A DNA stretch of 63,891 bases, counting the filler, from Collodictyon triciliatum (taxonomy: Eukaryota), in assembly GCA_043381765.1 (NCBI GenBank). It is 5 parts of 5 records of this genome, joined end to end, with 100 filler letters (N's around TTAATTAATTAA, not from the genome) between each part and the next. Parts side by side here need not be neighbours in the genome. Positions count along the whole stretch, not along the records: positions 38,416 to 51,105 come from JBHJMP010002118.1; 4 more parts are not named here. The stretch is one strand, 5' to 3'. The position numbers and the translations under genes are program-made. Below the pieces are notes generated by a model. That model had not been told where the DNA came from. It saw only the letters and a list, made by a program, of their open reading frames with translations, and did not search any database. Shown here piece by piece: positions 9,409 through 51,205 of the stretch (position 1 is its first letter; every line of letters begins with the position of its first letter).

Positions 9409-9439
<31 letters not shown>

Positions 9440-9684
9440 GACATTTTCGTTTTGTTTCTCGGCGTCAATGCTTATTCCTCGACACTTAAACCTCAGTTTG
9501 TTTCGAAGTATATTCGGGGGAAAAAAGTACCTCGAGCACAACTTAGCGGTTCCATTTTTTTCTATTTTTTTTTAAAAAAATAAATTATGAAAAGGACTGC
9601 CAGCGAACTCATTGGCCGGCGCACAGAGTCTTATGCAAGATTCGTGAATCTGTACCGAGTTCTGTGAACAGCCAAGTCGCATAG
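6350..9684 (+). CDS. Multi-exon protein with C-terminal MYND-type zinc finger
   Basis: Spliced C-terminus TCQRCSLVLLRPLRCGRCKNAHYCSK|DCQRTHWPAHRVLC (about 9233-9310 plus 9595-9684) matches the CxxC..CxxC....YCS..CQ..HW..H...C MYND pattern. Upstream GC-richer exons at about 6900-7083, 7270-7768 and 8011-8277 are bounded by GT/AG. The start codon and first exons are uncertain. Confidence 0.75.
6660..6752. repeat. (TTA)n microsatellite, intronic
   Basis: Directly visible. Confidence 0.95.
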
Positions 9685-12712: not shown

Positions 12713-12812
12713 NNNNNNNNNNNNNNNNNNNNNNNNNNNNNNNNNNNNNNNNNNNNTTAATTAATTAANNNNNNNNNNNNNNNNNNNNNNNNNNNNNNNN
12801 NNNNNNNNNNNN
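12713..12812. other. Artificial scaffold-joining spacer N44-TTAATTAATTAA-N44
   Basis: Exactly 100 bp, stop codons in all six frames, recurs identically four times in the window. Confidence 0.97.
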
Positions 12813-17932: not shown

Positions 17933-20900
17933 TTATGAGGTGAATTTGAGGCGCTTTGTTTCTTTCACCTTGTACCTCGTCTGGCCAAAGAAGTTTGGAG
18001 CTATCGTCTGTAGATAAGAGCATTTACGTATTGGTGTACATGATTAAAGGACAAATATCGGCAAGGAGCAATGAGCTGGCAAATCTGAACACTTTTTTTC
18101 TTTGTTATGATTTCATCGCGGCATCAGCCATAAGCAAAGTTTGATATGGGATGAGTCCGTACCGATGCGAGATCGCGCTTTAGAAACTGTAGCGCAGCGA
18201 GATTCAGCCCTATGACATCCTACGTAATGCATGTAATGCATATAATGTATGCATGTATGTATGTATGTATGTATGTATGTATGTATGTATGTATGTATGT
18301 ATGTATGTATGTATGTATGTATGTATGTATGTATGTATGTATGTATATGATTATAGCATATTTTGCTTTTGTGTGTGGGAATGCCATCGGTAAGCGTCGC
18401 GCGCAGCATTACCTTATAGGCGCGTGATTGGGTGTGCACGTGGCTCCACAACGACGATACTTGAGGGTAGAGTCGGTCTGTGTGTATCACTTGGTTATAG
18501 TGCGACTTTGTCAAAAAAATGGCACACTTGGAGCATAGTTCAATTTGAGTTCCCTAAAAATGTTAGATTTTCATGATACAGTTTGTCAAGGATTTTGAAC
18601 ATCAAACAAGATGCTTTTTTAAATTTAATTTTTATTTATTCATATTTCTTTTTATTTTATTAAAAAAAAAAAAAGGGAAAAAAGCCCGACGTAAAGTTGA
18701 TAGTCAATTTTGTATTTGAGTTCCTGCAACAACTTTTACAGACTATAATATTATGACTCACTTGTTGAATAAATTTGTCGAGGTATGACAGAAGCTTAGC
18801 CATCATGTCAAACGATAGCGTGAGAAGAGCCTCTTCGATTTCGTGCGATGGTACTGCTTTGAGAACACCCAACAGATTCTAGGATGCGTAATCAGCCACG
18901 AATGTGACATAGATTGCGATGAGGTATGCGGATTTTTTGGTGTGCCAATAATTGTATTTATAAATACCTCAGCCCCAGTCTTCCCCATGAGTAAAATATT
19001 TGGAGTTGGTGCTACAGGTTTTGAGACTTGTGTTGGGTGGGCCATGTGGCTAACAAGAGTCTAAAATAAAGACAAAGATTAGAAGGACAAATGAAAATTT
19101 TTATTCAATGCTTTTCGGGCATATTTGTTTGGAAAAAAAAAACGCAAAACAACCTCATTAAATTCTGCTAGTGTTTTTGCCTCTTCTTCTGCCAGTTCAA
19201 TTGCCTCTGATATCCTCTCTCCAGCTTTTACTGTTTCTATCGTCTTCTTTCCAGCTGATGCGCTTTCCGCATCAGATTTCTACAGAAGGTAGTATACAAA
19301 AACGTATCAAATAGCCGGGTCAAAGAATAATTATGATTACAAATCCAGTTGATGAAATATTGTGTAACAAAGTCTCGAAAAAGAAGATATGAAGAAGGAA
19401 GGAATAGATGACAATATAAACAAATATATACCTTTTCGGCTCCTTCAGCAAGATTTTGCTCAAATAGCTTATCAAGCTCTGCATCTCTTTCTTCTTCCAA
19501 AAATAGCTTTCAAGGTAGAATATTTTGAGAAAAAGACAAATACATGAGAATTGAATAAATAAACAATTAAAAGTCACCCAGAATGGCTAGATAGCCTTGA
19601 AATGCATACCTGCTCATCGGTTTTCTTCCAAAATCTCAGAGACCTGTCATGAGAACCTACATGATGGTTGTTATTTTTTCTCAAAAAAATTATTCAAAGC
19701 ATCCGATATTTCAGGTGATTTGAAGGAAATAATGTGAAGATCAACGATTTAAGCCGATATTTACAGAGTGATATACATAAAAGGTCCGCTATAATTTTGG
19801 AAAGTACCAGTAACCACAAAATCGCCTCGTCTGCTCACAGACAAAGCCCAAATTTCAGCGTGATGGCCTTCAAGTGCCATAATTTGCTCAAACTAAAACG
19901 AGTCAAAATGATTTTTTCCGCCATTAAAATGAAAACCAGACATATATTTGCCGGAATGATGCACGCTTGATACAACTTAATTGAAAGATGAATATTATAT
20001 ATAAATAAATATAACTACCTTGTCCATGTCCCAGTACTTGAGTAGCTTGTCCTTTCCAACAGAGAAAAGATAATGGGTCTTTGGTAAAAATTTTACCTGC
20101 ATAACGCTGTCGTTGTGGGCAAATAATGATTTATGACAGTCTCCAAAATCAAGACCCTACATAAGAAGAGGAGAGGCAGATATGACTTTTATTTTCACTT
20201 GACACTTCTCTCCACAACATAATCCATAGTATGGTGCCAGGACCAGGTTGAAATCGTCAAAATAAAAAGCAAATCGAGAGATTAGAAATGACGAAGCAAT
20301 ATTGTAAAGTAGAAAATACCCAGATTTTGATGTTTTTATCAGCTGAGCCAGTGGCAATGAGAGTCGAGTCTGAAGATATATCCAAGGAGAGGACAGGGAG
20401 CTTTTTACAATTTATCATGTAAATAAGTGCTGCACTAATTTCAACTTAAATGTTTTTAATTCGAAAAAAATGGATAAGCTGATCCAATTATGGAAACATT
20501 TTCAATAAATCTGTCATGAGAAACCTTGTGTCCGTATAGAGATAGTGAGAAGCGAAGGGTATCCAAGAAAAATATCTTGACTGTGGTGTCCAATAGAGAA
20601 ACCGCAAAGTATTTTTGGTCAGGACTGTATCTAAATTGTTTTGTAATTTTTTTTAACAATATAACTCGTGGAAAAATAGAGGATGGTCAAAATTAAATGA
20701 ATTTACTCAAAACTATTACCCATTAATTCTACCATTTGTGATATTGTGAGTGATTACATATGCGAACAAATGCTATATGATAATATTTGTACATACTTCA
20801 CACAGAGGATATCGTCAGTCATTTGCAATGAACGCACATAACCAAGGGTTATGTTTTTGCCTCCGGTTTCTCCTTCTTTCAACTGAAAATCCCAAAATTT

Positions 20901-23900
20901 TACTTCTTTGTCTGCTCCACCTTGATGTTGATCGTGTTTGATGAGAATATAGCATACGCATCATATAAAAAGAAATTTCGAGCTCAGAAAAAAGAAAAAA
21001 AAGGGTATACATACAGCTATGCAACACATTCAAAAGACGATAAACACACATACAGACACAGATTTGGGATGTCATGATTTTAAATGACAGATACCGACCA
21101 GTCATGAGACCTTTCCCGGTTGGGTGGATGTCGAGCGACCATACAGCGTTCGAGTGAGCTTCGATTGAATCAATCATGGTCGATGATGCAATTTCGAAAA
21201 GTTCTAAATGTCCAGATTTTGTTCCAATGACAACCTTTTTTTATTTACAAATATCAAATATAAATAAGTGTTTGTAATTTTGGTTATTTGGTTAAAAAAT
21301 TGCTATTTGAGTTGGTGATATCAAAGTAACCATTAAAATAACACATCATTCTCTCATAAAAGAAAGGAATAAAACCGAGGGAAGTGTTTATGGTTGAAAG
21401 AGCGTTGGCAGAAATAAATAAATTACATGTCTGTCTCCAGGCAAGAATGATGCACATAATGGATATCCACACTCCATACTTCGCATGCATTGACGAGTAG
21501 ATATGTTCCAAATTTTCAACATGCCTTTACGATGATGGAGTTAGAGCCTGCCTTAAGAGGTTTCATAAGGGTGTTGTATTGCGTTGGATACTGATGATTA
21601 CCGTTCGAGGCAGACAGAGCCATGCTTCCGTCGCCACTGATAGAAACCACTCTTATATCTTGTCTGTGGCCTGCTGTATCGCTTGATGAGACTGTTTCAG
21701 GGGATAAGTTTGTTAGAAAATCATACCACACATGTTCAAAATTATTCATATAGCAAACAAATAATTTATAGAACGAGCCTACCCTTCGTGGCATCCAACT
21801 CATTTAAAGTGTAAACTTCAACAACATTGTTGAATAGCGAAAGCAGTATTTGTTGCTATTATTTGAAACATGACTTAAGGCGAAGCAGGTTACAAGGATA
21901 TTGGAATATGATGATTGAGCAATAAGCAACAATATTGAGGGCACATTTTGAACATACCTTTCCACCTTTCGGTATCCCTTTAAGAGGCAAAAAGTCAATC
22001 GAGCGCACTTTTCCACCTCCGTGAACAATAATTTTGGATTGGAACTCATCCGTTGTTTGGTATTGGCCAGCATTTTCCACTGCACATATTTTGGTAATTT
22101 TATAAGTTTTTTTGTAACAAAAAGATAAATAAATAACCGAATATCATATTCATTAATGGAACATAAAGGCTGCTCGGTTGAAAGTATACACTGCTCTTCG
22201 GTAACAACTTCCTCCTGATCATCATCCAGTTTGGTCTTGGAGCTTTTTTCTCTTAATCGTTTCACTCTTCGCTTGATTTTCTTTTGGATTTCTTGTGCAT
22301 CAGCGACATAATAAATTTGCACATTCCTGTCTGCTGGCTATTGAGATGGGTAAGGGTTATGAAAAACAGCCACCACTTTTCTACGAATATAAAAGTGAAA
22401 TCAGAGATTTTAATTCGTTCTCTAAAAGTCTCCTTTTATATAAAAGTAAATTTAGCCATTTCAGAACGTAAAAGATTTATCACAATTACTTGGCAAGCAA
22501 GATATTTTCCATCCTCGCTAAATCTCAAGCTAATTACTCTTTCCTTGCCATCCCGAGGGAGGGTCCCAAGAAGTTCTATTTCTTGAATCGCCGGCTTATC
22601 TTCCTGGTTAAGCACAATAGAAAAAACAAAAAGAAAAATATTCTCAGTAATATCATTAAAAGCACAGAAAAGTACTGCTTTAAAAATAAAACCCAAATGA
22701 ATTTTTTTTTTCCTGTTACCTCCACCTTCGCAGATTCAAATGGAGGTATATTCCAAACCCGAAGAATGCTATCAATTGACCCTGATATCATTTTCGTTTC
22801 ATCCTTGTTCACATCGAAACTCCAAACCTCTGAGCGATGTCCCACCAATGTTTGGATGCAATGCTGAGTATCCATATCCCAAAGCTATTTTCATACCAAA
22901 GTGACGACATAGATTGATTTTTGTAGAAAAGTAAAGATAATGAAATGAAAGTTTTTCAAGAAAAATAACCAATTTTAAACGATAAAATAATTTCATTGTA
23001 AACCTTAATGAACGTGTCTTTGGAGGAAGATAAAACTTTTCTTGAATTTTCCAATAAGCGAACATCAGTAATAACATCCTTGTGACCTCGAAGTCTGGAC
23101 ACAGTGAATCAGGAAAAAAAATATAGATTGCATTAATAAATGCCTTCTTATTTCCTCAAGTAAAAAAAGACCAACAGTTGATAGTTCAAACAAAAATATT
23201 TGAAGTGTATGTAAGATAAAAAAATACTTGAACATGCCAGTTTCGGATACGACATCCCAAACAATAACGTCAGTATCTCGCGAGCCGGAGACCAAAAGAC
23301 TTCCAGACGTGTTGAATCTAATACAAGTGACTGCATTTTTATGGCCACTGAGTTTAACCTTGAGCTGAGCCTGATCGAGGCTCCATATGCATATCGATCC
23401 GTCCTGATGCCTTTGCGTGTGGTAGGCAAATTCTCAATTGGGTGATATCAGAAGGATTTCGTGTGATAATACAAGAGAGAGAGGGAAAAAGGATACATAT
23501 ACTACAGCTACTGGAAAATTAACTCAATCCCTGTGCTCAATTAGAGTTATGGATGAAAGCTTTGAATTAAGTATTTCATAAAATTAAGCATGAATACTTA
23601 TGTATTTTAAACTAACCCTGAAGCTATTAGCTTGCCGTCGTGAGAACGGGCAATACTGGTCACTTCTGATTTCCCGGCATTCATTCTCTTGGTCTAGATG
23701 TATTGGCGAATCATTAGGGATCTAAAAATTGCAAGGTAGAACTTTGCAAGTAATATAGATAACTTGTCACAAAGCATAACAAAGAAGGACAAAAAAAAAT
23801 AAAAAAATAAAATAACAACGAAAAAGTAACAAAATGAAATAAAGTAAAACAAAGAGGAGAATCCTAAGTGCACAGTGAAAGTGAGTGATTCTCTTTCATT

Positions 23901-25517: not shown

Positions 25518-25617
25518 NNNNNNNNNNNNNNNNNNNNNNNNNNNNNNNNNNNNNNNNNNNNTTAATTAATTAANNNNNNNNNNNNNNNNNNNNNNNNNNN
25601 NNNNNNNNNNNNNNNNN
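25518..25617. other. Artificial scaffold-joining spacer
   Basis: N44-TTAATTAATTAA-N44. Confidence 0.97.
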
Positions 25618-25990: not shown

Positions 25991-28900
25991 TTAATCCAAC
26001 AGTGGGTCAGACATTGACATCGTGGAGAATGATTTCATCCTGACAAACTTTTCTTTGATGGGGCCTTTTCTAAAAACTGGGATGATGAAAGCCATAGATA
26101 CGAAATAAAGAAGCCATATGGAGTTCATCCCGATTAGCAGTACTGCAACCCATGACTCCGAGCCAAGCAGAATGGACAACAGAGCGATGAAGAAGGAAAC
26201 AAAAATAACATACAAACTCGATAGTTCCATTTGATTTTCGATTTTCGAGTTGTACGGGCTGTATTTTTTTTGCATCCAAATTGAACCCTATTATTTTTTT
26301 TTTTTACTTAACATTTTTTTAAACCTAGTCCTAAATAATAGTAAATTGGCTGCCATAAAATTTTATTTAAACCCAGATAATATCGTAAAAAGTAGAGAGC
26401 AAACCTGAAGGATGATGACGAGTAGCAAGAAGAAAACAGAGGGTCTAGTGTATGGAATGACGCCAATTATGATGGAAAAGGCGATGCGCCGGGCGATGAT
26501 GACAAACTCCCAGTATCTGAAGCTCTGAGAAAAGGGTAATATATCAAATACTTTTATATCCAATGGAACACATCGATCCAGGCATTCGTGCCTTAATCCA
26601 ATTTAAGGGGCAAAATAAGGAATTTTAAAAACCTCTTTGTACGGCATGTAAAGAAATCCGTAACGAGCCTCATATTCACACCCCGGCCTTTCAATCATAT
26701 ACCTCATTTTGACCCAAACAAAAACAGGTAACCCAACCAAAAAAAATAAAAAAATGGGAACAGAAATTATAAGCAGGTTTTGATATTCATTGGAAGCGGG
26801 ACTGCATCTAATCCAGGGTCTGTAGTTCAGGTACCAATTGTCATCACCGCCATCATAAACAGTGCAGCCAAAAACACCAAAGACTTCCCTTGCTACAGAG
26901 TAATAAGCGAAGAACAACAGATTCAGAGTGATGAAAACCGCCTAAATAATCAATAACGATACAATCAATATAGGCATCACCTAATCAGTTAAATATGAAA
27001 ATAGTATTGGCAGGCTTTCAACGTCATCGAATTATTATTTTCGTTTATTCTATTCCATTATCATTCAAATTAGCATAATATTTGTGACCTTATTGCGTTT
27101 ATGCCCAAGTTCGAAGTAATAAGTAACCGAGCCAATCAGAACGAAAACTATAACTCTTGAAACATTTAATAACATTGAATTAAAATAGCTTTCTATGCCA
27201 AAAACACACGAGATATTAGGAAGTTGAATTGAACCAATAGACGAGGATATTTCAATGAATCTGTTTGTTTCATCTGATTGGATAAGCCCAGAAAGGAAAA
27301 TCGAGAGCGTTTGCATGTGGAACATGGTAATCCGTAGTTTTGCTAAATTAGAGTAAAAGAATGTCAAAGTATTCACACAATTCAAATGAGGATGAATATT
27401 AAAAAAAAATGTCAAAGTATTCACACAATTCAAATGAGGATGAATATTAAAAAAAAAAAACCTGATTTCGATGTTTCTGACACATAGAGATAGAGAATGA
27501 ATAAACATAGGCCAATCGATCCAACAACCAATGTGAGATACATAGTTTGTTTGTCACATTGACCACACGATCTCCCTTGGTTTCCGTACCCAGTCTTACA
27601 TTTTGAGCATGCACGTCCCTCATACCCACTTCCGCATAATTCGGTGATCTGGATTGTCATATTTGTATTCGAAATTTTATTTGGAATTACAGTATTACAG
27701 GATTCTGGTCTTGGGCATGATATGATCACTTTTGCTTCGATAACACTCGGGGATGCGTGGCAATTCTTCAAAGAAACCCCATCGAGACATTCACATTCTT
27801 GAGGACATATAATACACTTATCACCAAACCCAAAATATCCAGGGAGGCATTTACAAAACTCATGATCGTAATATTTTGGATTTAGATTCACCTTCAATTC
27901 GATAATCCCTGCTTTTGATATAATGGAAGGACATAAATATAATTTTGATTCCTCTTCCAAACTAAATAAAGTAGTATAATTCATAAAATCAGGAAGAAAA
28001 TTTGACTCCATTCGATTCATCGAGATGACATTCAGACCCAAATACTCAAGTTTCGAAAAACGGACGTATGATTCTGGAATACTTCCATAAATCAGGTTTC
28101 CAGAGAGTTCAAGAGAGGTCCATTTTACCAAGTTTGTGAGTTCCCCGAGTGTAGTTAAATTGTTGTTTTTTAAGCTTAATGTTTTTATATTAGTCGCATA
28201 ATTAAAAATTCTCCAGTTCAGTTCTCCAGAAAGCTGATTATTATCAAGCAGAAGGTTTTCATAGAAATAATAGTCGTATTGTGAATCAGGCACAATGAAA
28301 CTACCTACGTCCCCAGAGAGCAAATTGTTCCTTGCGTCAATAGTGACTAAATTTGGTATGTTCCATAAGAAATCAGGCAAGCTTCCAGAGAATTGGTTGT
28401 GTGATAAAGTAAGAGATTTTAGTTGCGACAGTTTCTCAAATGCTTTTGGGATAGTTCCATAAAATTTATTCCACGATAAGTCGATGTATTGGATCGAAAC
28501 AGGATTCCAGTCACTTGGAATAGAGCCTGATATTTGATTTTCACTGACATCTAATCTCTTTAGGTTTTTTAGCTTGAATAAAGGAAGTGTCCCGGACAGA
28601 CGATTTCGAAATAGAATCAATTCCCTCAGATGAATGCAGTCATCAAAACTTGGCAAAGACCCTTCAATTTCGTTACCGTATATGGAGAATACCTCCAAGT
28701 TTTGAAGATTTGAGAAATTTGGAATCTTCCCTATAATACTCATTTATTTAGAGAATCATTATTATGAAAAAAAAAAGTAATCATAATTACCACTGAGCTG
28801 ATTGCTATCTAGATAAATCATTTTTACATCTGGTATTTTGTTGAATTTCGGTATTTCTCCTAAGCAAATACTTTCTTTTAGTGGGTGGATGTATTATCGA

Positions 28901-31296
28901 TTAAAAATTAAATACCTAACCTGTAAACCTGTTGTTGTAAAAACGAATCGATTGAACCTTAGGCATGTTACTGAAGTTTGGAATTATACCTATTATAGAT
29001 AAGTTCATCAAAACAGGGAATAGTTTAAAGTGATAACTGATATTATTGGAACCAAACAGATTAAAAAATTGAGAATCGATATATGCAGAGCATGCAAATA
29101 TCTCAAAAAGAATAAATGCAGAAAAGGGTCGGTTTTTGTTGACTTCCCATAGTTGCGAAATAATTTTTTCTAATATCAGACCAACCAAAAAATTCGTTGC
29201 TGGACAGCGAGATCAATTGGGTATTTGGAATAAACATGAAGTCAGATATTGTACCTGTGAATAAAAAGTGTAATGTAGATTTACTACATTTTAAGTAGGA
29301 GCATTCAGATAAAGAATGGTTTTTTGAAGAATAAATTATGAAATTTACCACTCAAATGGTTGCTATGGACAGATAAAATCGTCAACATAGAAACATTTTC
29401 AAGTTTCGGCAGAGTTCCTTTCATTTGCACGAGTTTAGAGTAAAATTCTTTTAAAAAAACTCGTAGCATACAAATGGCGAACATATATACATACCTGTTA
29501 ATCTGTTGCTATATAGAGATATTTCTCTAACATTAGGGAAATAATTGAAATCGGGTATTGTTCCTGCCAGACAAAATTAGTACAGGGCACTTTTATCAAG
29601 TTTTCTAGCAACTTACCAATTATCTGATTTTCATCCAAATCAAAAACTTCAATATTTGCAATAAATTCGAAGTCCGGAATCGTCCCTTTAATGGAGGTAT
29701 TTAGAATCATTTCATCTCATTACAAGAAAATTTTGAGAAATTTAGTTACCGGTTAACTGATTAGTATCAAAATCGATAATCTTTACACATCGGATGTTGT
29801 TGAAATTCGGAACGCTTCCTTTAATAGAAAATTAGTATAAATGATATTTTTTAATCTCGAAACAATTTTACCCGTCAATTGGTTGCTGAAAATATTAATC
29901 TCCCTTAGAGTTGTCATGAAGCGAAAGTTTGGAATGGTTCCTGTGATTTACATTAGTGAGTACGTAACATAATAAATTTTAGATGATACAATAATCGATT
30001 AAAGGATGAAACAATTGAATGTAAAACCGCCAATCTTGCTTTCGTAAATCTCAAGAATTTTGATATTCGGCATATGGAGAAAATCAGGCAGCGTTCCTAA
30101 GATAACATAAATATCTATGATTAATTTTAAAATATATCAGTTAAATGCTTTAAAATATTCGTACCATTTATTTTTTCGCTAGACCCTATTCTTAGACTTT
30201 CAATAAACGAAATTCCAATGAAGTCAGGAACTGTGCCCTCTAAATGGTTTCCACCTAGATTTAAAGACTCAATGTTTGGAATTCCTTGAAAGTTGGGAAT
30301 AGTTCCGGATATTTGGTTCATCTGAAGGTTCAAATTGAGCATTCCAGGGAGATAAAAATCTGGGAGACTGCCATAAATTGAATTATTGCTCAGATTCAAA
30401 TCAGAGAGGAGCATAAATTGTTCCAAAATTACTGATGCAGCTCCAATATCACCAAACAGATTGTTATCTTCCATCGAAATACCAACAACTGGACATGTAT
30501 TATTCTATTTGCACAGATGATTAGATAACGATTGTAATTTTTTTTGAAAATATTCAAACTCACCTTAATATCTTGATCTGTGCAATAATTATCACAAATA
30601 ACCCCACTCCAATTACAGATAGGTATACTTTCATTATTCCATCCATTTTTATCAGTCCAATTATCACCATCAAATATGTCGTAAATACTGACAAGGAGAT
30701 TGAATTGGTATGCTCCTTTTGGATAAAATTTTTCATATTTATTATCTTTGTCGTTAAGTTTGGTTTTGTTAGATATTTTTGGTTCATAAATGTGAGTATT
30801 TTCGGGAGAGTCGAATTCATCAACCAAATATCTCTCATTTTCTGAATTTTTGATGTTATTTGTGTTACAATAGCTGCAGTTTGTTTCACATTTTTGCATC
30901 GATGAAGTAAATCCTTCCTCATAGTTCTTTGATGTTGATATACAGGTATCCTCGTAGTATTCCAACAAAATTTTAAATGCATCTTCAACTTTCATCGATA
31001 ACAGTTCATCTCTTGAGTAGCGACATCTGATTGTGTAATATGAATTTTTTTTTTTTTTGTTAATTTTGAAATTTTTCATTATGTAATTTATCTGACAAGC
31101 GAACCTAGACCAAAACCTCAGCCATCAAGCACAAATTGAAAGGATTATTAGAAATGCTGCAATCTCTTCCTTGAGTTGAATAATATAATTTATATATTTT
31201 GCTATGATTCACCTTTCTAGCGATTGAAAAGAAAGGCAATGGGTAACCAGGAATATTGCAGTTATAAACCCAATCAGAGTTTTCGAACGGCTGCAT
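25991..31296 (-). CDS. Extracellular LRR / Cys-rich / multi-pass membrane receptor-like protein
   Basis: LRR N-cap NWTDKNGWNNESIPICNWSGVICD, more than 20 plant-type LRRs (LxxLxLxxNxxxGxIP), and a Cys-rich stalk (CKCLPGYFGFGDKCIICPQECEC...CGSGYEGRACSKCKTGY...CGQC). Many hydrophobic segments follow, with RYGFLYMPYK/YWEFVIIARR motifs. Stop at 25991. The 5' end upstream of about 31027 is uncertain because the frame does not join cleanly. Confidence 0.88.
27360..27455. repeat. 48-bp tandem duplication inside an intron of the LRR gene
   Basis: AATGTCAAAGTATTCACACAATTCAAATGAGGATGAATATTAAAAAAA occurs twice back to back. Confidence 0.9.
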
Positions 31297-33823: not shown

Positions 33824-34243
33824 AATACATACATACATACATACATACATACATACATACATACATACATACATACATACATACATACATACATACATAC
33901 ATACATACATACATACATACATACATACATACATACATACANNNNNNNNNNNNNNNNNNNNNNNNNNNNNNNNNNNNNNNNNNNNNNNNNNNNNNNNNNN
34001 NNNNNNNNNNNNNNNNNNNNNNNNNNNNNNNNNNNNNNNNNNNNNNNNNNNNNNNNNNNNNNNNNNNNNNNNNNNNNNNNNNNNNNNNNNNNNNNNNNNN
34101 NNNNNNNNNNNNNNNNNNNNNNNNNNNNNNNNNNNNNATACATACATACATACATACATACATACATACATACATACATACATACATACATACATACATA
34201 CATACATACATACATACATACATACATACATACATACATACAT
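33824..34243. repeat. (ACAT)n microsatellite with internal gap
   Basis: Directly visible. Confidence 0.95.
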
Positions 34244-38315: not shown

Positions 38316-38415
38316 NNNNNNNNNNNNNNNNNNNNNNNNNNNNNNNNNNNNNNNNNNNNTTAATTAATTAANNNNNNNNNNNNNNNNNNNNNNNNNNNNN
38401 NNNNNNNNNNNNNNN
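38316..38415. other. Artificial scaffold-joining spacer
   Basis: N44-TTAATTAATTAA-N44. Confidence 0.97.
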
Positions 38416-39417: not shown

Positions 39418-42400
39418 ATGTTGCAAACCCGGATTATGAGAGAAAACGATGCAAACAAAGGCGCAGTTGCCACTGAATCCGAGTGCATCATCGAAGACAC
39501 AGCCCACGCAAAGCGCTACTTCAAAGGACGAAAACTTGGGAAGGTATGATGTCTCCGCGATGTGTTCAACATGCAGTACCGTATTGTGTGCTGGTTTTTT
39601 TTTATTTTCCACTGCCCGCAGCTGTTTGGCCGTCGGCCTGGGAAATGAATCTCATCGGTGATTTCTCATAGGGTGGCTTTGCTACCTGCTATGAGATGCG
39701 TGAGGAAGCGACGGGGAAGATCTACGCAGGAAAGTTTGTTCAAAAGTCGACACTCGTGAAGCCGAAGGCCAAGCAGAAGGTCTGTTACCTACCACGATAC
39801 TTGAATACACTTATTGCAATTGTTTTGCTCCGTGTTTGTTTTGGTTGCGACTTGCTTTCTCTTTTTTTATTTACTCCTTACCCCCGTTGTTCGAAGGCGG
39901 TTTCGTAGAATTACGTTCTATCACATCGACACGCCTTGTCAATACGATTGTTGCACCAATATGCATGCCTACAATATTCTATTGGCTGAAAATCTTGTTC
40001 ACTTATTTAGTTGACAAACGAAATCAAAATCCACCGCTCCGTCAACCATCAGAACATCGTCCGTTTCCATCAGTGCTTTGAGGACCGCGAATATGTGTAC
40101 ATCATACTCGAGCTCTGCGATAACAAGGTTCATCATGGAATCATATATTACCATCCTTAACCCATGCTGTTTGCAAGCAACATTTCATCCTAGAATCAGC
40201 TTTTGTTGCTTTATTTATGAATGATGTTACGTTGTCTTGTCATTCGTGGTTTATCATCTCATCCTTCTTGCGTTGTAATACCACTTGGACGAAGGAAATC
40301 TGATTGGGGTATTTTATACGTCGTCGCAGAGTTTCATGGAACTACTTCACAAGCGCAAGCGTCTAACAGAGCCTGAAACGCAGTACTACATGCAACAACT
40401 GGTCCATGCTGTAGGCTATCTCCACAAGAGCAACATCATCCACCGTGATTTGAAGCTCGGGAACTTGTTCATCAACGACAAGATGGAAATGAAAATGGGA
40501 GACTTTGGACTTGCGACGACTCTCGCGTACCCTGGAGAGAGAAAGCAGTAAGGAAGCCGCATTTTTTGAAGGACTTGCAAACTCTAGTTGTATCAGTTGT
40601 GACTCTCATAAAGTCTCTTTCTATTATCTACTGTATCTCCTCGTATCCATGCATGTTTTTATAAGGTTCCTTATTTGCAGCACCATTTGCGGTACCCCTA
40701 ATTACATTGCGCCAGAGATGATTGATGGCAAAGGAGAGCACGGGGCTGAGGTCGATGTATGGTCTATGGGTGTTATAATGTTCACATTGTTGTGTGGGAA
40801 GCCCCCGTTTGAGACGACTGATGTCAAGACAACGTACAAACGAATCCGTGGGTTGACATACGCCTTTCCCGAGAACGTGTATATATCCGACCATGCCAAG
40901 GGACTCATTCGCTCTATGCTTTCTCTGACACCATGTAAGCGACCCACCCATCCTAAACTATTCCTCCTCATGACGTAAAACCCAAAAAAAATAATAATGA
41001 ATCAAGTGTATGAACATACACTGTTTCATCGTTGACTAGTGTGTGAATTCTGATAAAACATGGATTTGTCTTTTGCATCAGGTTCACGTCCGTCATTGAA
41101 AGACATCGCCGCACACGCTTTCTTCAAGACTGGGACGATTCCCCGCAGCATCCCTATCTCCGCCCTCACTACAGCACCCACATTCAACAGTGCAACCACT
41201 CTGGGTCCCGCACTCAAAACTTCCATCCCAACAGTGTTACCTCATACATGGACGCACGTCCCGTTTCATGGGTTCAATGCGGACAATGAGACGGACAAGG
41301 AAAACGCTAGAGGGAATCTTGGGATAGGAACTGCCAGAGGCGTGATTGAGAGCCATGGACTATACGGGCATGGCCGCACCCCGACAGACGAAGTGGAGTG
41401 CCTCAAGATGGCAGACATGGATATCCGTGAGTCAGTTCGTGGACGAGGAGAAGCGGCTTGCAACCCCGCCGCCCCTGTAATGGCTCATGTCCACCATGCA
41501 GGTCAAGTCCCCCAACCTAATACAATAGTGTCTGCCCCGCGAGCCTTTCTGCAGAGTTCACAGCCGAACAACCCCGATGAAGATGAACGGAGCTGCCGCC
41601 AGTCATCGCTCTTGCAACCGCAGCAAGCAGGTCTTCGCAGCTCAGGCTCATATGTTGCCCAAACCCCTCAAACGATTGGGCCCATCCCTCCTTGCAACCA
41701 AGGCACCTCTATCGCTCTTGCAACAGCCCAAGCAACCTCTTCAAACTCCGGTCAGTCTTCCAACTCATGCAACGGAAGTAAAGGCTCGAGCTCAGCCACG
41801 GGGTCAGAGAATAACTTGAAGGAAGCGAATCTGCGAGCTGAGTCCAGGACCAGGTCCAAGACCTGCAGTGGTGAGTAACGCATATTATTACTCTATCTTA
41901 TCTTGACATATACTTGAATCTGAAACATCGCTAAAATGAAGAGGAATACATTTCTTTGCTCGAGGATTTATTCATTCTATTGGAACATTAAGGATACCTT
42001 TGTTTACATCTTGCTTACGTATTACACCGCCGCCGTAGTTCTCGGGGCCATCAATACGGTTCAGTTGGGCAACGGTGCTGCCCATATCGCCAACCAAGCG
42101 CCAGCAACTACGCGTTTGGTTGGTTCCAACGGCAAGGATGTTTTTGACGGCGCTGTGGATGCCAATGCTGATGGTGAGCTGGTGGAAGACGGACAGGAAT
42201 TGGATGATGACGACAGATGCAACTTGACATACATGCACCAGAAGCTTGCTGCGGGCATCGAACAGATAGGGTCGCCTGAGAGGGCAAAGTTGTTCAGGCT
42301 CCGAGAGAGGGAGGAACGGGGTTTGTACCTATCAGAGTCTTCCAACGAAGGTGTTCAACACAGACACAGTCACAGACACACTAACATAAGAAAGAAAAAG

Positions 42401-43584
42401 TAGCAACACCACTCCATTCATATAAGTACTAGGCGCTAATCAACACACACTCTTTCATTTTTATCATCCACCCAGATAAACTGAAAGCCACTCTCTGGCT
42501 GACCAAATGGGTTGACTACTCAAACAAGTATGGACTCGGCTACCAGCTTAGTGACGGAATCTATGGTGTCTTTTTCAATGATACGACAAAGATTGTGCTC
42601 CACAGTGACGATGAGTATGTTTATTATCTCCCCTAATACTATCCGACTGAAGTCATGTATTGGACAATTCGATGACTCATGACTTTATTGCGTCATATAC
42701 GAAGAAACATTATAGGAGTTTCATGACACAATCTGAACACGCTCACCCATCCTTTAGGCACTTTGATTACATTCCGTTCCACGCCTCACAAGTACCAGAC
42801 ACCAGGGAAACCTACACCCTCTTGTCTCATCCCCAGTCCCTGCAAAAGAAAGTTACTCTGCTCAAGTACTTTAAGAACTACCTTGTCGAACACTCGGCCA
42901 CACAGGTTCCTAGAGCAACCTCGAGGTCTGGCGAAGTACACGATGCAGAGTCTGGAGCTCCTGTGTATGTCAAAAAGTGGATGCGGACCAAGCATGCCAT
43001 TATCTTCCGCCTCAGTAATCGGAATGTCCAGGTGAGCCGTGGGACTAATTCCTACAATACCGCTCTTCGCTCTATGTGCGGCTTTTTGAGTGCATTGTAT
43101 CACATCAAATCGCTGAAAATCAGAGCAACGCTTCTCACCGCTCGCTGGCTTTGTTCTCCTTTGTAACGCGCAATCCGTCCCACAGGTGAACTTTTTCGAC
43201 CACACCAAAGTCATTCTTTCGTCCGAGGGGCAGATTGTCACATACATCAATAAGAAACGAGAGATGAGCACGTACAGCATATCGTCTGTCTCTCGCGAAC
43301 AAACGCCCGACCTTGTCAGCCGGCTGAAGTATACGAAGGTATTACCCAATCCATTACCAACACAAAAGCAAAAAAACAAAAAACAAAAAACAAAAACAAA
43401 AACAGAAACAAAAGCAAAAACAAAAACAAAAAGATGCAATTCTCACGTCCGGACTGTGTCCTTGGCGTCTGGCAGCAGCTGTGCGCGCAACAATTAACAT
43501 TGCACACACGCTGAGACAGTAGAAACAACGTTCCTAAGGCCAATAACAATATAGGATGTGCTGTACCGTCTCATTCACAAGTAG
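39418..43584 (+). CDS. PLK1: Polo-like serine/threonine kinase
   Basis: Kinase motifs LGK|GGFATCY, IHRDLKLGNLF, MGDFGLA, TICGTPNYIAPE. Polo boxes WLTKWVDYSNKYGLGYQLS and KKWMRTKHAIIFRLSNRNVQ|VNFFDHTK. Stop TAG at 43582-43584. The start is tentative. Confidence 0.96.
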
Positions 43585-44334
43585 CTATCGAAACTGTCCT
43601 CGATCACTTCGGTTACTTCACAGCCAAGTTGCCCACACTTATGGAAGCACTCCTTGTGAGCAGTATCTTCTCCGACGCCCGCTGTCCTATTCTTCTGGGC
43701 CCAGTGTTCTGCGGTGTGTGTTCATTGTGCCCAGATTCATCCAAACCTCTGCCCTCAAACGCGCTCTCTACCTTCGGTATCAGCGGTGGTGCCGTCCCTT
43801 TTCCCTTCTTTTCCCTTTTTTTTTTCTTTTTCGTATCGCAAGCCTCGTGTACATGAATGTGAATAAACGTGATCACACCGACAGAGAGACAGACTTGAGA
43901 GGATCAATAAAAAACAAAACAAACGCAATTAATAGGAAATAGCCTCTTTTGCTGAGAAATAAGACACAGAGAGACATAGGAGACACCCTCCAGAAAATAA
44001 TATCATTGCACTGGCGTTCTTTCCTTCAGCTCTCAACCCACCACATCCCGAAGCCGAAAAAAAAAAAAAACACGCAAGCGATCAGAAAGAGCGATCCTGA
44101 GAAGGACGAGATCGGCGCCACAGCCCTGCGCCAATGAGTGCCTACTGACCGAACGCAAACTGAGAAGGCCGACGAAGCCAACCCAGAGAGCGAAAAGGTC
44201 ACTCGACCGTATCCTTTGCAACACAGGCTATGCACAGAGACACACCGACGACCAAGACGCCAGCTGCCACCGACCTGTGAGTCCAACAACCTACTAATAG
44301 GACAGATCAAGCTCTTTCAAACAAAAAACAGAAA

Positions 44335-44490
<156 letters not shown>

Positions 44491-45319
44491 AGGTGAACAA
44501 ATAACGAGCTATCGAGCTCTAGCCGTCAACCCATGGATAGCAAGATAAATATGAATATAGTGCTCAGTGTTGGTAGCTCTGATTCATTCATCTATTTCTT
44601 TTCTCTTTTTTCTTCTTTTTCTTCTTCCTTTTCCTTTTTTATCTTTCTCTTCGGTTTCATTCAGCCTGTTAATGGATAAACTTCATTACAAATGTTGTGA
44701 CGAACTTGGTTTTATCCCTTTCAAGACACAACACTTTTAATACAACGAAAGTGTACCCATATATAACAGTTTATTGCACAGACAATCATCGAATTAAATC
44801 TGTATTGACAAAAGCAGGAGCTTTGATGTATCCAAGAAACAATCTGAACAATATAGCAGTATGGTTAGTATATATATAATAAGGTTAAAATACTTAATAA
44901 TCTCATTCTATTCATGTAATCAATTTATATTTATTTTCCATTTATGTAATATTATCGCATTAAAATTCAAAAAATGACAAACAAGCCCTTGTCTTGGCCC
45001 AGACAGAACCCACCCAATAAACCTGCCACCGAACATGCATTCCAAAAAAGCATACTATCCACACTTGCGGTGGTAATCATGTTGTTTGGGCCGATATGTT
45101 GACTTTCAATTGCAATGGCTATACGGCTGTCCCTTCGAACTCGCCGAATCGGCTCTCAGGGTTTTGTCTCAAATCATTTTTAAAAAAACTGTGTGTTTGT
45201 TTGCCACAATGCGCACATTTTGAGAGTCTCGGTAGATGCTTCATTTTACCTAAATTGATTTTTACAGTTTTTTTTTTAATTAAATTGACTGTTTGACTGA
45301 AGTTTTATTGAAATTGAAA

Positions 45320-47300
45320 AAACGGTAGTTTTCTAAAGGAAAAAGCAAACCAAAGACTTTCAGATGAAGAAAAGAAAAGTCTTGAGTCTGAGAATCTAAA
45401 GTCGGTAAAATCAGGCTATCAAAATGTGAAAACATCTCTAAAGCCGGATGTAAAGAATGCGGATGACTATTACAAAATCAACGGTACGGTTTTATTGTAT
45501 CATAACTTGGTTACCGACACTTATCTGTTTGTAAGATGTTACATATTGAAATCAAAACAAGTCTCAACAATCGATGAAATGTTTTTTTGTACGCTTTAAA
45601 GACAGTCGGAGTAGTTTCACAAGATAGACCCACAAGATTAAAACAACAGAAATGAGAGATGGCATGATGGCTTTTTATCTCAATGATTTTCGATTCATTT
45701 TGTCCCGATAAGAACGCTTTCCGTTGGTTAGACTGTCTCATGTATTACCGTACTTAGCGAGGCAAATGCTAACAGCTTATCATAATTACATTAACGAGCA
45801 TTATGTAAAAGGTTACCGCGCTTTATAAGTCAAACAGCTCCTAAAGATGAGAATATTATGATAGCTGTTTAAAAGGCAGAGCTACGAAAGTTAAAAAAAA
45901 AAAAGACATCTTCGTGAAACTCGAAATACTGGAGCAATATAAAGGATGGGCTACACCGCATTTGAATCGTATCATTCCCAGCGATATTGTAAAAACTATC
46001 GAATATGACGTCAAAGTCAATCCAAACAAGTACATTCCATGTCTGATTTACATGAATCGCATTTTTTGAGGACATTGGAACAATCCTGCTTCAACCAATC
46101 CCTATAAGAACTAACAATATACCCTGTCATATTACTCTAGTAGCTGCATGTTTGATATATCTATTAGTATCAAATGGAAAAACATGATTAAAGAAGAATA
46201 TATCAGGATGCAAAGAGACACTATGGGGTTGACTTCTTTGAAATGAAGAGTGTCTTTCATCAAAGAGACTACAATTTTAAATACATGATGCAAACAGACG
46301 GCTTGGCGGTGACATTATTGTTTAAAAAGAAAGCTATTTCAAGTTCGAAATTCAAAATGTAATAAAAAAACCTAAGAATGTTTATATATATAGATGAACT
46401 TTCCGAAGAGCAGTTATCTTTATTAGCGAAAAAAAATTAGTTGGAGTGGACGCAGGCAAGTTTAATTTTGTTTACATGGTGGATGAGACAGGTAAGAAAT
46501 TACATTACACGGCACACCAAAGAAGACATGCTAGCAAATCTCTTAAAAATCACAAAATACTCTTGTGGGAGAAAAAAGAAAAGTACAATTATTCAGGGAT
46601 ATACATGGCAATAGGTTTACAAATTGCTGTTTCTTTTGGTCACATGACTTAAGAAGAGAATCAGCAGTTTGAGACATCAAGAGTATCTTAAATCGATTTA
46701 GAGATAGAACTGAGTAGACATAATTCATGCACGGTCGATTATGAACAATTTCGAAAATATGTACCTATGAAACCAAGAGACCAGATAGAATTATCCACAT
46801 TTTATGAACATGTAACTTTTCGAAAGATGAGATGGATACATTATGTTAATACAAAAAGAACCGAACAATGGTTTATGGACCGAATCGAAAAGGCATTTGG
46901 CAAGGATGCTGTACTGGTGTATTGAAACTGGAGCAGAAAATCTCAGATGAAACATTCTAAGCCAACCATCGGAAGAGGATTACGAAAAATACTATCCAAA
47001 CGTTTTGAAACAGTTATTGTAGATGAATTAAAAACCTCCAAGATGTGTTGCAACTGCGAAAAAGAACTGGAATACGTGAAACCGAAAGGAAGTAAAAAAA
47101 AGTGTATAGATGTCTCATGTGTAAAGAATGCAATCGCTCAGAAAGCAAACAAAGTGTATTCTTGACAAATGACTCTAACGTCGCTAAAAATATACTCAAG
47201 AAAGTTCTTTCAATTCTTCAAAAAAAAATTATACACCTTCCTCTAAAAAACAGGCTGTCGGGTCTTTCTTGGCAACCTTCACCACTACGTGACCCTTGTG
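45320..47300 (+). mobile_element. Fanzor1-type (eukaryotic TnpB-like RuvC nuclease) ORF, pseudogenised, intronless
   Basis: Motifs appear in order across frameshifts and stops: YQNVKTSLK; NLVTDTYLFVRCYIL; VLPYLARQMLTAYHNYINEHY; DVKVNPNKYIPCLIYMN; NFKYMMQTDGLAVTLLF; RuvC-I GVDAG (Asp codon 46449); FYEHVTFRKMRWIHYVNTKRTE; VY*NWS (TGA 46923); PTIGRGLR; RuvC-II VDELKTSKMCCNC (Glu codon 47025); RCLMCKEC; RuvC-III TNDSNVAKNI (Asp codon 47171). Confidence 0.88.
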
Positions 47301-47400
47301 AAAAAAGTGGCGAGACGTTGGATACTAGCGCACCAAGTTTGCCAGTCGAAAGATGGTATTCTCCTAAGCGAAACAGAAATCTAAGCTCGCGCTAGACCAA
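47230..47400 (+). ncRNA. Candidate Fanzor omega-RNA scaffold / element right end
   Basis: GC-richer segment overlapping and following the ORF 3' end. Closing stem CTAGCGC(47325-47331)/GCGCTAG(47389-47395), internal GAAA-tetraloop hairpin 47340-47358, and CCACT/AGTGG stem at 47282-47310. The position is where TnpB/Fanzor guide RNAs are encoded. Confidence 0.45.
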
Positions 47401-48436
47401 GCGCAATCTATGTGCCCTTGCGATGCCTACGCCCAGCACCCTCGCGAAGGAAAGAATCCAGAAAAGGTAACTCTGAATTAGGAAAACATTTTCCACCGAT
47501 AGAATTGCTTCAGAAAATTCAACCAATCAAACTGCGACACCAGGATTTCGAAAAACGTGCCCAAAACGCGTTGCAATAATATTTTTTTTTGAATTGACAA
47601 ACACCAAAAACCAAAATTTGACTATCCAAGAAGAAAACCCAAAGCAAAAGTCCAAAAGCGAAATAAGCCATTGGCGAATCCATAAATTTTTTTTTTCCTT
47701 TCCTTTTTTCCTTTGTTTCGCTTCTGTTCGGCGCCAGTTCTCAAGCATAATCAAAATCAAAAATAAAAATAAAAATAAAAAAACACAAACACATAATTGC
47801 AATTGGGCTCGCTTTCCATTCGCCCGTTTCCACATTTTGTTCTTGGCGTTCAACATCCGCAAAGCCATAACCGAAAAGAACCGAAAGAAGACTTTGTTGC
47901 ATTGCAGGGCCATGGGCTCATTCCGCACTGGCCGGCACAGGCATGGCGAATAGTGCTGCTGTGATGGATGCACGAAGCAGCTCAGGCCGTCTTTTCCCCT
48001 TTCGTTCCCCTTTTGTACACACCTTTTTTTTTTTTATAATTTCATTTTTGGTTCGTGCATCTTCTTCATCTTTTGGGTGCACTAATCCGAAGCGCTATCC
48101 ATCATTCCTCGCTGGCCGCCTCAACGCCCAATATCGGCTGGCGGTGCTGGGATGAAGGGACGAAACAAAACAGGGAGCCCCAAGAAAGCAGGCGAAGGAA
48201 ACTATCCTCGTGGTCGCTTCTCTTGCTTGGCCTGCTGCCCTTCTAGTTCTTTTGTTCTCTCCTTTACCTCATTATTATTTATTATTATTCTGCTTCATAT
48301 ATTTATTATAAACTTAACATACTCCTTTATAGGGCCAGACGCCCACCCAGAAAGCAGCAAAGGCGAACACAAACAATCAAGAAAAAAAAAAGTAAACAAA
48401 AGAAAAGGGAAGTAAGCAAGTAAGGAAGTAGCTCTG

Positions 48437-50205
48437 ATGAGCGAATTCAAGGTCGAAGCCAGTACGGACAACGCTAGCAACACAGCCACGAGATGCCTCT
48501 CAAAAGTATCTTCCAACTCAACTCGGTAAGGTGTTACTAACCTGCTCTATACAAATAATAACAAAATAAAAACAAATAATAACAAAATAAAAGCAAACAA
48601 AAACAAACAAAAACAAACAAAAACAAACAAAAACAAACAAAAACAAACAAAAACAAACAAAAACAATAAAAGAAAGCAAAGACAGTTTCTCGTTTATACA
48701 GACATGTGCCGAAATAGCTAAAAAAGCGAACGCTCAAACAAACAACTGCAGTCTGGGCTTGCGCTTCATCCTGGAAAAGACGCATTGCTCAGCGCCTAAA
48801 GCACAGCCGCCTGCTTCGTTCCCACACCCTTTCTCGATTTGGTGCACAGAGGCTGTCAATCTCAAAGCCATCGTCATAGACCCACTCAACGCACCCACAC
48901 GCTTTGACTTTGTCCGTATCGCCCTTTTCGATGTCGACTACAACCCCATTGTCCATGGACTCAAATCGTTCAACAAGGAGCTCACGGTATGATACCATTT
49001 ACCACCAAATATTTGCATACTTTCTGCATAAGCACATGCAATAGTTGAAGGGACAAATTCGTAGCCAACGTTCACGCCCGCAAAATCAAAAAGAGCATCT
49101 CCTCTCCATGTTCTCACAAAAAAAATTTTTTTTCTGGTCTCTGGTATACATGCGCATACCTGCAGACATATCTAGATTGCGAGTTCAAGAAGGACGCCTT
49201 TTACTCTCCGAAGTTCGGAGTAGGGAAAACAAGCAGCGAGATTTTTGGGTGTCTTCTAGGCGAGTTCCCAAGTCGCCAGGGCGGCCTTGTGCGACTGGGC
49301 TTTATGGTCGGCCTAGAAAACACCATATACATCCATTACCTTCCTGAATTCTGGAGCGTCAGTAAGCTTCCTTTACTTCGCGAGGAAAACCCCATGTGGC
49401 GCAACATCGCAGACCATCGCGGGTATGGCCTCAACACCCCGATACATCTTAAGTGCAAGAGCCGTCGGGTGATGAGGTGTGGGAGGCGTAGGACGCTTCC
49501 CAACAAGAGATTCTCTTCGACATTGCATCGAAGCGATCCTTCTTCGACTTCCAATACTGACAAAGCACTAGTTCTCACACCTGACAACGAATACAATTCT
49601 GACGACAAGGACGCTCAGGGACAGAATCGCTTCACATACGAGGCCGATTTTACTGGTTTGTGTCTTTTCTTCTTTTCTATCCTTTTCTTTGTAATCTCTA
49701 TCGTTTCCACTTTTTACATTCAAAAAAAGATATCTCATTTTGCCCCTTCACTAACTCTAACTCACTCTGTGCGTGAGATGAAGAGAAAAGTTATCCCAAT
49801 TCAAAAATGTCGTTCTGCGTGATACCACGATACAATACTGCATTCAATTAATAGAGAAAACAACATCATATTAACATACAAACACAACCAGAGTACTGCC
49901 AGGAACAGACCTTTCGTCTAAAGACAGAGTCATTCCTTCAACTCCCGTCTGTTTGGTACAACCTATTTGTCCAGCCCTCTGGCTCTGGCGCATCACAGAT
50001 CTCGCCAAAAAGGGCTGTTCAGGACCAGTCTAGTCCGACCTCCCTAACAACGAACCCTGAAGCGCCACAAGTTCAGCGGAGTCGTGTCAATCCAGCGCCC
50101 TCCCCAAAAGTAGGGCTGGAGCTCTTCAGTCGCCAGTTTGACCCTTTCTGGGACAAAATACATCGGGAGTCAGAGACACTCCATCGGTGTCTCCAGGAGA
50201 ACTAA
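48437..50205 (+). CDS. Uncharacterised 4-exon protein; shares a ~130-aa domain with the gene at 53517-54753
   Basis: Exons at about 48437-48525, 48751-48986, 49166-49655 and 49892-50205 splice in frame at GT-AG sites to a TAA stop. Confidence 0.75.
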
Positions 50206-51105: not shown

Positions 51106-51205
51106 NNNNNNNNNNNNNNNNNNNNNNNNNNNNNNNNNNNNNNNNNNNNTTAATTAATTAANNNNNNNNNNNNNNNNNNNNNNNNNNNNNNNNNNNNNNN
51201 NNNNN
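51106..51205. other. Artificial scaffold-joining spacer
   Basis: N44-TTAATTAATTAA-N44. Confidence 0.97.

Follow-up and report, generated by a model that had tools for sequence, protein, structure and literature searches.

The 63,891-nucleotide stretch of Collodictyon triciliatum DNA analysed here (assembly GCA_043381765.1; hereafter the window) very probably contains, at 45364-47300 of its plus strand, a decayed solo copy of a Fanzor1 gene that drifted after its insertion between a PLK gene and the gene downstream. Among the TnpB/Cas12 RNA-guided RuvC endonucleases, Fanzor1 is the branch that occurs in eukaryotes and giant viruses. The copy is dead: its reading frame carries 18 disabling lesions, ten of them frameshifts and eight of them in-frame stops, and no intact open reading frame (ORF) for a nuclease is left. 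What can still be read in it is a colinear, intronless coding sequence with most of the residues that define the family, including the codons of all three catalytic acidic residues.

A broken Fanzor1 reading frame

The coding sequence was recovered by frameshift-aware dynamic-programming alignment with P0001, an intact metagenomic protein of 648 amino acids found on a 2610-nt contig. Residues 1-642 of P0001 are colinear with window positions 45364-47289 on the plus strand, and 385 of the 629 aligned codons are identical (61%). The relic begins at the ATG at 45364 and continues as one unit. No sequence is inserted at any break, and thus the relic is intronless and its breaks are not introns. 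The frameshifts lie at 45379, 45588, 45647, 45805, 45906, 46064, 46230, 46423, 47094 and 47219, and the in-frame stops at 45709 (TAA), 45870 (TAA), 46185 (TGA), 46360 (TAA), 46363 (TAA), 46650 (TAA), 46689 (TAA) and 46923 (TGA). When P0001 was compared with the window by tblastn, four colinear pieces in three frames were found between 45366 and 47245; elsewhere in the window there were chance matches only (E at least 0.52), and neither blastn nor tblastn revealed a further copy there. Nearly all of the family proteins that we collected (247 of 248) match the relic region in tblastn at E<=1e-3. P0001 is the best of them, with 548 summed bits against at most 408 for any other. Agreement of this extent greatly exceeds what chance would give.

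A preliminary description of this DNA had proposed a coding relic of this kind, colinear and intronless when read across frameshifts and stops, and the alignment to P0001 confirms it. The same description counted three fragments in the ORF track and placed the start of the relic at 45320. The coding relic begins at 45364, and stop-to-stop ORFs on the plus strand divide 45318-47395 into about eight short fragments. Together these hold every motif that had been quoted, namely NVKTSLKP, QMLTAYHNYINEHY, MMQTDGLAV, LVGVDAGK, VLVY*NWS, VDELKTSKMCCNC, RCLMCKEC and TNDSNVAKNI. The largest fragment, at 46692-47165, comprises 158 amino acids when its single TGA is read as X.

This fragment is sufficient to identify the family. 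Among chains in the PDB it matches PpFz1 of Parasitella parasitica (9cf0, E 1.4e-12), SpuFz1 of Spizellomyces punctatus (8gkh, E 4.7e-8) and GtFz1 of Guillardia theta (9cer, E 6.9e-7). In a search of a 5.8-billion-protein collection for longer proteins, P0001, which is 66% identical to the fragment, was the sole relative at E<=0.001 among 109 candidates. A comparison of P0001 with 1.84 billion representatives yields 3147 relatives at E<=1e-3, 537 of them at E<=1e-30. The proteins closest to it are 42-48% identical and nearly all lie on metagenomic contigs of 2-4 kb, and one UniRef relative bears the name 'Transposase, viral metagenome'. Nearly all relatives (P0001, P0152-P0248) carry the precomputed Pfam label PF26935.1, presumably that of a recent Fanzor-type model.

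A profile built from 46 full-length family members (A1) finds three Fanzor1 proteins in the PDB: SpuFz1 (E 1.9e-105, profile positions 8-600), PpFz1 (E 1.8e-103) and GtFz1 (E 3.4e-78). Apart from these, just two LaTranC entries (about 4e-4) are matched at E<=0.001, and no Fanzor2 or TnpB chain reaches that threshold. The AlphaFold2 model of P0001 has a mean predicted local distance difference test score (pLDDT) of 86.1 and a predicted template modelling score (pTM) of 0.84. Its best structural matches are SpuFz, PpFz and GtFz chains (E 2e-27 to 5e-23); the SpuFz chains give E about 2e-27 and TMq 0.73-0.76, with template modelling (TM) scores to 8gkh of 0.76/0.82. The TM scores to Cas12 variants, TnpB and the mimivirus Fanzor2 are 0.2-0.35, those to ApmFz2 and TnpB being 0.22-0.23. 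Identity between the family and the solved Fanzor1 proteins is about 18-21% in the structure comparison. Based on the PDB sequence matches, the profile and the fold, the family is Fanzor1 and not Fanzor2 or TnpB. The Fanzor1-type identification made in the preliminary description is borne out by these three lines of evidence. So is its use of the long N terminus as a Fanzor1 trait, given the span of the profile alignment with SpuFz1 and the colinearity of the relic with P0001 from residue 1. Its expectation that frameshift-aware comparison would reveal Fanzor and RuvC homology holds for both the P0001 alignment and the Fanzor1 profile matches.

Across the 46 sequences of A1, the invariant positions include D364 (in GxDPGK), E555 (the Glu before TSKxCxxC), D604 with R603 (the RD motif) and G521 (in YGDWS). 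The window retains the D364, E555 and D604 codons (Table 1), in agreement with the earlier statement that all three catalytic acidic residues are present, and the codon of the Gly is now TGA. Also retained are the four invariant zinc-finger cysteines (C562, C565, C587 and C590), within KTSKMCCNC and RCLMCKEC, so that a C4 zinc finger of the form [TS][TS]xxCxxC ... CxxC is still followed by the RD motif, with its Arg replaced. Overall, 9 of 13 A1-invariant residues are kept, the losses being P365A, E391A, G521 to a stop and R603N. Among residues invariant in the 24 closest relatives (A2), 90 of 111 are kept and 21 are lost. According to Jiang et al. (PMC10530073), the RuvC site of Fanzors is rearranged: Gly or Pro stands where the canonical RuvC-II Glu would be, and an essential, alternative Glu follows some tens of residues further downstream. 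The extremely conserved G and E had already been noted in Fanzor1 by Bao & Jurka (PMC3627910). As judged from sequence, the arrangement of D364, E555 and D604 with G521 matches this rearranged site. The earlier reading of a catalytic Glu just before the zinc finger as the Fanzor RuvC arrangement fits the 'alternative glutamate' of PMC10530073.

The stops in the relic are not homopolymer-type errors. Each of them would be reachable by one base change from some codon for the residue that P0001 has at that position, for example Gly GGA to TGA at 46923 and Gln CAA to TAA at 45709, where the ancestral codons are deduced from the P0001 protein and not from its coding DNA.

Related copies and their genetic context

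To place the window copy among its relatives, contigs from four public sequencing runs (X1-X4) were mapped on 44600-48600 at a likeness of at least 80%; a region without contig cover is not taken as evidence. X1 contributed 501 contigs, of which 30 are at least 99% alike, 101 are at 95-99%, 206 at 90-95% and 164 below 90%. X2 contributed 99 contigs, X3 266 and X4 four. A word search of the public runs with 45000-47700 found no run above a tenth of the sampled words. The related contigs listed cover about 44727 to 47365, the upstream part through records such as 44727-45090 and 45044-45443. Contigs that carry a variant at 44693 extend 32-41 letters past it, which takes the cover back to roughly 44661. 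Related contigs thus reach about 640-700 bp upstream of the ATG, and the interval 45320..47300 given in the preliminary description is too small for the repeated unit. Beyond about 47365 the cover becomes thinner, with none at all in several bins, and it was not used to place the right end. These patterns suggest that the window copy is part of a Fanzor-only unit some 2.7 kb long, many diverged versions of which occur in public runs. Some of the runs with diverged versions are freshwater metagenomes.

The related contigs also bear on the lesions. At 46923 they read G and not the T of the window, in 198.3 of 226.7 units of depth in X1, 14.7 of 14.7 in X2 and 26.8 of 26.8 in X3, contig depths that are not copy numbers. 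One-base insertions or deletions at 45374, 45809, 46062, 46231 and 46428 stand beside five of the frameshift sites of the relic. We interpret these differences to indicate that, among the variants listed, other members of the family are undamaged at one stop and five frameshift sites. The earlier claim of a dead copy is upheld by the ten frameshifts and eight stops, together with the undamaged state of related contigs at these sites.

Two 151-nt contigs from X4, a metagenome, are identical to the window over 46388-46538 and 46567-46717, spans within which the frameshift at 46423 and two stops (46650 and 46689) fall. Provided that X4 is not itself the source sample, the identity independently supports the reality of those lesions. 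X4 and X2, which are freshwater/subsurface metagenomes, hold contigs with 0-2 differences from the window at 46388-46717, 47433-47677 and 47904-48145. It follows that such samples contain the source organism or a very close relative.

A few X1 contigs are joined across GT..AG boundaries. Two joints in the 5' leader, 45230->45328 and 45159->45328, share an acceptor and are represented by one contig each at 80% likeness. They hint at splicing in the 5' leader, on the guess that X1 is an RNA run. Joints inside the ORF include 45482->45601 and 46489->46700, both GT..AG and again in single contigs of 80% likeness. The contig with the second of these skips exactly 210 nt (70 codons) between 46489 and 46700, with a consensus-like AG/GTAAGA donor and an AG acceptor. 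The skip lies inside the Fanzor reading frame and may reflect either a deletion or cryptic splicing in a related copy.

The DNA context of more distant relatives is known from viral contigs. A scan of IMG/VR with A2 found 28 loci, 28-47% identical to P0001 and many of them on contigs of giant-virus metagenome-assembled genomes (MAGs) up to 476 kb in length. P0001 alone found nothing in IMG/VR, and a metagenome scan with it returned one distant locus only (L001, 21% identity). At L002 and L005 a divergent ORF of 343-346 amino acids precedes the Fanzor1 gene and encodes a helix-turn-helix (HTH) and a DDE_3 domain (E 1e-13 to 1e-15); tblastn with these two transposases detects a relative in 15-17 of 29 loci. 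Perfect inverted repeats of 32-33 bp bound the gene pair at both loci, those of L002 lying at 1637-1668 and 4921-4952 (left arm TTTACACCCTTGAACATTTAAAACGCCGACTT). Of 17 distinct loci, 11, including the very distant L001, are bounded by a conserved inverted repeat of 30-33 bp, which was not seen in the other six. The repeat-bounded units measure 2251 to 4780 bp, and the short ones without an intact transposase are L001 (2251 bp), L012 (2638 bp) and L006 (2743 bp).

Bao & Jurka (2013; PMC3627910) described Fanzor1 in Tc/mariner elements of giant viruses and eukaryotes, along with Fanzor-only derivatives, and the viral loci have this architecture. By sequence, the clade otherwise appears to live in mariner-type transposons of giant viruses. 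Mariner/IS630-like elements that combine a DDE_3 transposase with a divergent Fanzor1 occupy L002:1637-4952, L005:1627-4949, L004:1638-4919 and eight more loci. The 30-33-bp inverted repeat hardly varies among these elements, even across proteins with no more than 21-47% identity to P0001.

No transposase was found in the window. A domain scan of its 97 ORFs detected no transposase domain, and the partner DDE_3 transposase of the clade left no trace there by tblastn (best E 2.2), as the preliminary description had held in stating that none is adjacent. The part of the repeated unit at 44661-45231 gave nothing in tblastn with the viral partner transposase. When 44500-45363 was compared with the viral loci, blastn gave AT-rich chance matches only and tblastx none. 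Of the features by which a Tc1/mariner element is recognised, neither terminal inverted repeats with a TA duplication nor a DDE_3 transposase was seen in the window, where pattern searches for the inverted repeat gave 0 hits and 1 chance hit. Because no element ends are recognisable in the window, its membership of a mariner-type transposon is by analogy only, an analogy that makes a non-autonomous transposon copy plausible.

The relatives also share a predicted RNA structure at the end of the gene. In the aligned 3' ends of the 11 repeat-bearing loci (A3), nucleotide conservation runs past differing stop codons up to the inverted repeat. RNAalifold recovered two helices from this alignment, and a small hairpin was added by eye. 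In the resulting structure 84.4% of cells are paired; sliding the partner by 1-3 columns lowers this share to 43-48%. Both sides vary in 16 of the 24 pairs, and none of 500 shuffles reaches the observed values. Helix 1 falls within the ORF, in the region between the second CxxC and the RD motif, and in helix 3 the spacer before the repeat pairs with the inner half of the right repeat. As described in PMC10432273 and PMC10530073, Fanzor omega-RNA overlaps the end of the gene and reaches the right end of the element. The predicted structure of the relatives fits such a published omega-RNA scaffold, and the right inverted repeat of the viral relatives may serve both the transposase and the guide-RNA scaffold. 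The A3 nucleotide profile matches the window at 47096-47200 (E 3.5e-11), and only the helix embedded in the ORF (Table 1) appears to be still recognisable there. The stretch 47290-47345 was considered as a counterpart of the relatives' right end and rejected, its local alignments with the 11 relatives being no better than shuffles (z -1.7 to 0.3). An Rfam scan of 44000-49000 gave only a chance MIR530 match (E 0.61).

Origin of the copy and competing explanations

By inference from the family, an intact member of roughly 650 amino acids would bind an omega-RNA whose template is the 3' end of the element that encodes the protein, locate DNA by the 3' guide of that RNA together with a short adjacent motif, and cut with a D-E-D RuvC site whose Glu stands just before the C4 zinc finger. 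To judge from the closest relatives with DNA context, the gene would ride in a Tc1/mariner-like cut-and-paste transposon, with a divergent DDE_3 transposase and 32-bp terminal inverted repeats. The window copy would have been inserted between the PLK gene and the downstream gene and would then have drifted neutrally, a process that may account for the 18 reading-frame lesions, the loss of 21 of 111 clade-invariant residues and the lack of a recognisable terminal repeat or RNA module. Given these lesions, residue losses and missing terminal module, the copy is expected to make neither a nuclease nor, probably, a working guide RNA, and RNA-guided, TAM-dependent cleavage of DNA would not be expected of it.

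Several results run counter to a decayed Fanzor1 copy of this origin. Pfam scans of seven relic fragments and of P0001 returned nothing significant. Repeat and target-site-duplication (TSD) scans, local alignments and pattern searches found no inverted repeat, TSD or other element end in the window. The terminal RNA module was likewise not recovered: the best window match to a nucleotide profile of the last 112 columns of A3 lies elsewhere (E 2.3), and of the 16 matches at E<=10 to R1, a covariance model of the module, none lies near 47200-47500, the best being on the minus strand at 4210-4313 (E 0.74). When folded as RNA, 47150-47420 does no better than shuffled sequences (z -0.73). The nearest relatives with DNA context are themselves 28-47% identical to P0001, and their architecture may not apply to the lineage of the window copy. 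Finally, five of the ten frameshifts fall in homopolymer runs of at least six bases and could be assembly errors.

The homopolymer runs also speak for a live gene, the breaks of which would be spliceosomal introns, assembly errors or the product of an alternative genetic code. Fanzor genes are known to acquire introns (PMC10530073), and all of the stops are TAA or TGA. Counter to this, the alignment of the relic with P0001 continues colinearly across every break and reveals no intron-like extra sequence, the eight stops face ordinary P0001 residues (Q, S, H, E, F, L and G), and 21 of the 111 invariant residues are substituted. The X4 contigs reproduce two stops and one frameshift exactly. Read with the standard code, the neighbouring PLK exons match the kinase and polo-box families of Pfam normally. 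One of the stops replaces an invariant Gly, and an alternative code is rejected as an explanation of the stops. We therefore regard a live gene as extremely improbable and close to refuted. Still less probability, next to none, attaches to a prokaryotic TnpB, a Fanzor2-type (IS607-associated) element or contamination. The RuvC and zinc-ribbon core is common to all of these proteins, and there is a weak Pfam Cas12f1-like_TNB match (E 0.78 for the fragment, 0.0027 for a viral relative). Arguing against them are the A1 profile, strong only on Fanzor1 chains with no Fanzor2 or TnpB at E<=0.001, the low fold similarity to ApmFz2 and TnpB (TM 0.22-0.23), the long N-terminal half, REC/WED-like in Fanzor1, that aligns with SpuFz1 over its full length, and the position of the element between intron-containing eukaryotic genes.

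It is also very unlikely that the copy is a remnant of integrated giant-virus DNA rather than one of a family of cellular transposons. The nearest relatives for which the context is known do lie on giant-virus MAG contigs, one UniRef relative is labelled 'viral metagenome', and virus-integrated Fanzor1 elements have been reported in eukaryote contigs (Bao & Jurka, PMC3627910). However, the flanks are intron-split genes of host type, with PLK upstream, and no viral hallmark was found among the 97 ORFs of the window. The unit of roughly 2.7 kb, and not its flanks, is common to hundreds of diverged contigs in three runs, which is the behaviour of a dispersed repeat, and the 2610-nt contig of P0001 has the length of one unit. 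A decayed cellular copy of Fanzor1 may have a longer history. A P0001-type lineage could have passed from giant-virus mariner elements into a freshwater eukaryote, shed its transposase and inverted repeats, gained a spliced 5' leader and still multiplied. We consider this extended history rather unlikely. If true, a lineage without its original partner would have spread by other means, for example through capture by another element or by RNA-guided homing alone.

Genomic surroundings and comparison with known systems

The coordinates of the repeated unit and of the features within the relic are collected in Table 1. The relic sits in a spacer of roughly 4.5 kb between the PLK gene upstream, which is on the plus strand and has several exons (kinase 40279-40975, polo boxes 42651-43494, both with standard-code Pfam matches), and the next plus-strand gene. 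Just upstream of the repeated unit is an (AAT)n microsatellite of about 50 units at 44329-44481, followed by a CT-rich low-complexity tract at 44587-44650; the two obscure the left boundary of the unit.

Table 1. Positions of the Fanzor1 relic, its features and the adjoining parts of the repeated unit in the window
Feature	Position	Strand	Remarks
Upstream part of repeated unit, putative non-coding leader or promoter region	44661..45231	+	X1-X3 contigs 80-99% alike
Possible 97-nt GT..AG intron in 5' leader	45232..45328	+	Ends 36 nt before ATG; hint only
Fanzor1 pseudogene	45364..47300	+	Intronless; 10 frameshifts, 8 in-frame stops; N-terminal basic MKKRK stretch
RuvC-I catalytic Asp codon (GVDAG; D364)	46449..46451	+	Adjoining invariant Pro365 now Ala
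TGA stop in place of invariant Gly521	46923..46925	+	Gly at canonical RuvC-II position in Fanzors
Alternative RuvC-II Glu (VDELKTSK; E555, codon 47025-47027), then first zinc-finger CxxC (47046-47057)	47025..47057	+	
Second CxxC (47120-47131) and RuvC-III Asp codon (47171-47173; D604)	47120..47173	+	Invariant Arg603 now Asn
ORF-embedded RNA helix, homologous to helix 1 of relatives	47122..47165	+	47122-47132 with 47155-47165; 9/10 pairs kept
Short downstream stretch	47301..47365	+	X1 record 6 covers 47245-47365; no inverted repeat or terminal RNA module recognisable

Elsewhere in the window, a leucine-rich repeat (LRR) protein gene at 27433-31124 on the minus strand encodes an N-terminal LRRNT_2 domain of plant type (E 3e-5) together with LRR_8 repeats (E 1.4e-20). 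Exons of a WDR3-like WD40 protein lie at 20818-23433 and an ankyrin exon at 11136-11555, all on the minus strand, and TPR and MYND-finger exons occur near 732-1094 and 9131-9580. Four pairs of 44-N runs with 12 bases between them (12713-12812, 25518-25617, 38316-38415 and 51106-51205) recur about every 12.8 kb, a regular spacing that looks like masking or scaffolding and not biology. Larger N blocks are at 5173-6020, 13529-13598, 16855-17119 and 33942-34137.

The window copy is one more dead copy in a family of known kind that already numbers in the thousands; 3655 unique Fanzors are given in PMC10530073. By itself it raises no new question, this kind of element being well described in print. 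It does show that a gene for an RNA-guided nuclease, heavily broken and hidden by ORF tracks, can be recovered when raw sequence is read unaided. Intact relatives in this Fanzor1 lineage, such as the 648-residue P0001, could be screened as compact genome editors, and the connection with mariner-type elements of giant viruses agrees with a published proposal in which viruses spread Fanzors (PMC3627910).

Among known systems, TnpB (of the IS200/IS605 and IS607 OMEGA systems) and Fanzor2 share with the family an ancestral RuvC and zinc-ribbon core and the RNA-guide logic in which the guide is read from the right end of the transposon. They differ in that the family is much longer, at about 650 amino acids, with a Fanzor1-type N-terminal half, that the partner of its relatives is a DDE transposase and not a Y1 or serine TnpA, and that fold and profile matches between the groups are weak. 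The Repbase elements PGv-1, PUl-1 and the Fanzor-only PUl-4 (PMC3627910), compared here by description and not by sequence, resemble the viral relatives in having a mariner/IS630-like DDE_3 gene beside Fanzor1, inverted repeats and TA-rich flanks. In the window, in contrast, there is no recognisable inverted repeat, TA duplication or transposase remnant. PUl-4-like Fanzor-only derivatives find counterparts in L001, L012 and L006, and the window unit (roughly 2.7 kb) is of similar size.

The nearest characterized systems are SpuFz1 (8GKH), PpFz1 (9CF0) and GtFz1 (9CER). The window copy differs from them as a pseudogene with 18 lesions, known from sequence alone. The likeness of the family to these proteins extends over the full length of the profile and to the fold of the P0001 model. 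It includes the D-E-D RuvC site, the alternative Glu beside the C4 zinc finger and the Gly at the canonical RuvC-II position and, in the relatives of the window copy, a predicted structured RNA, overlapping the ORF at its 3' end and extending as far as the right end of the element.

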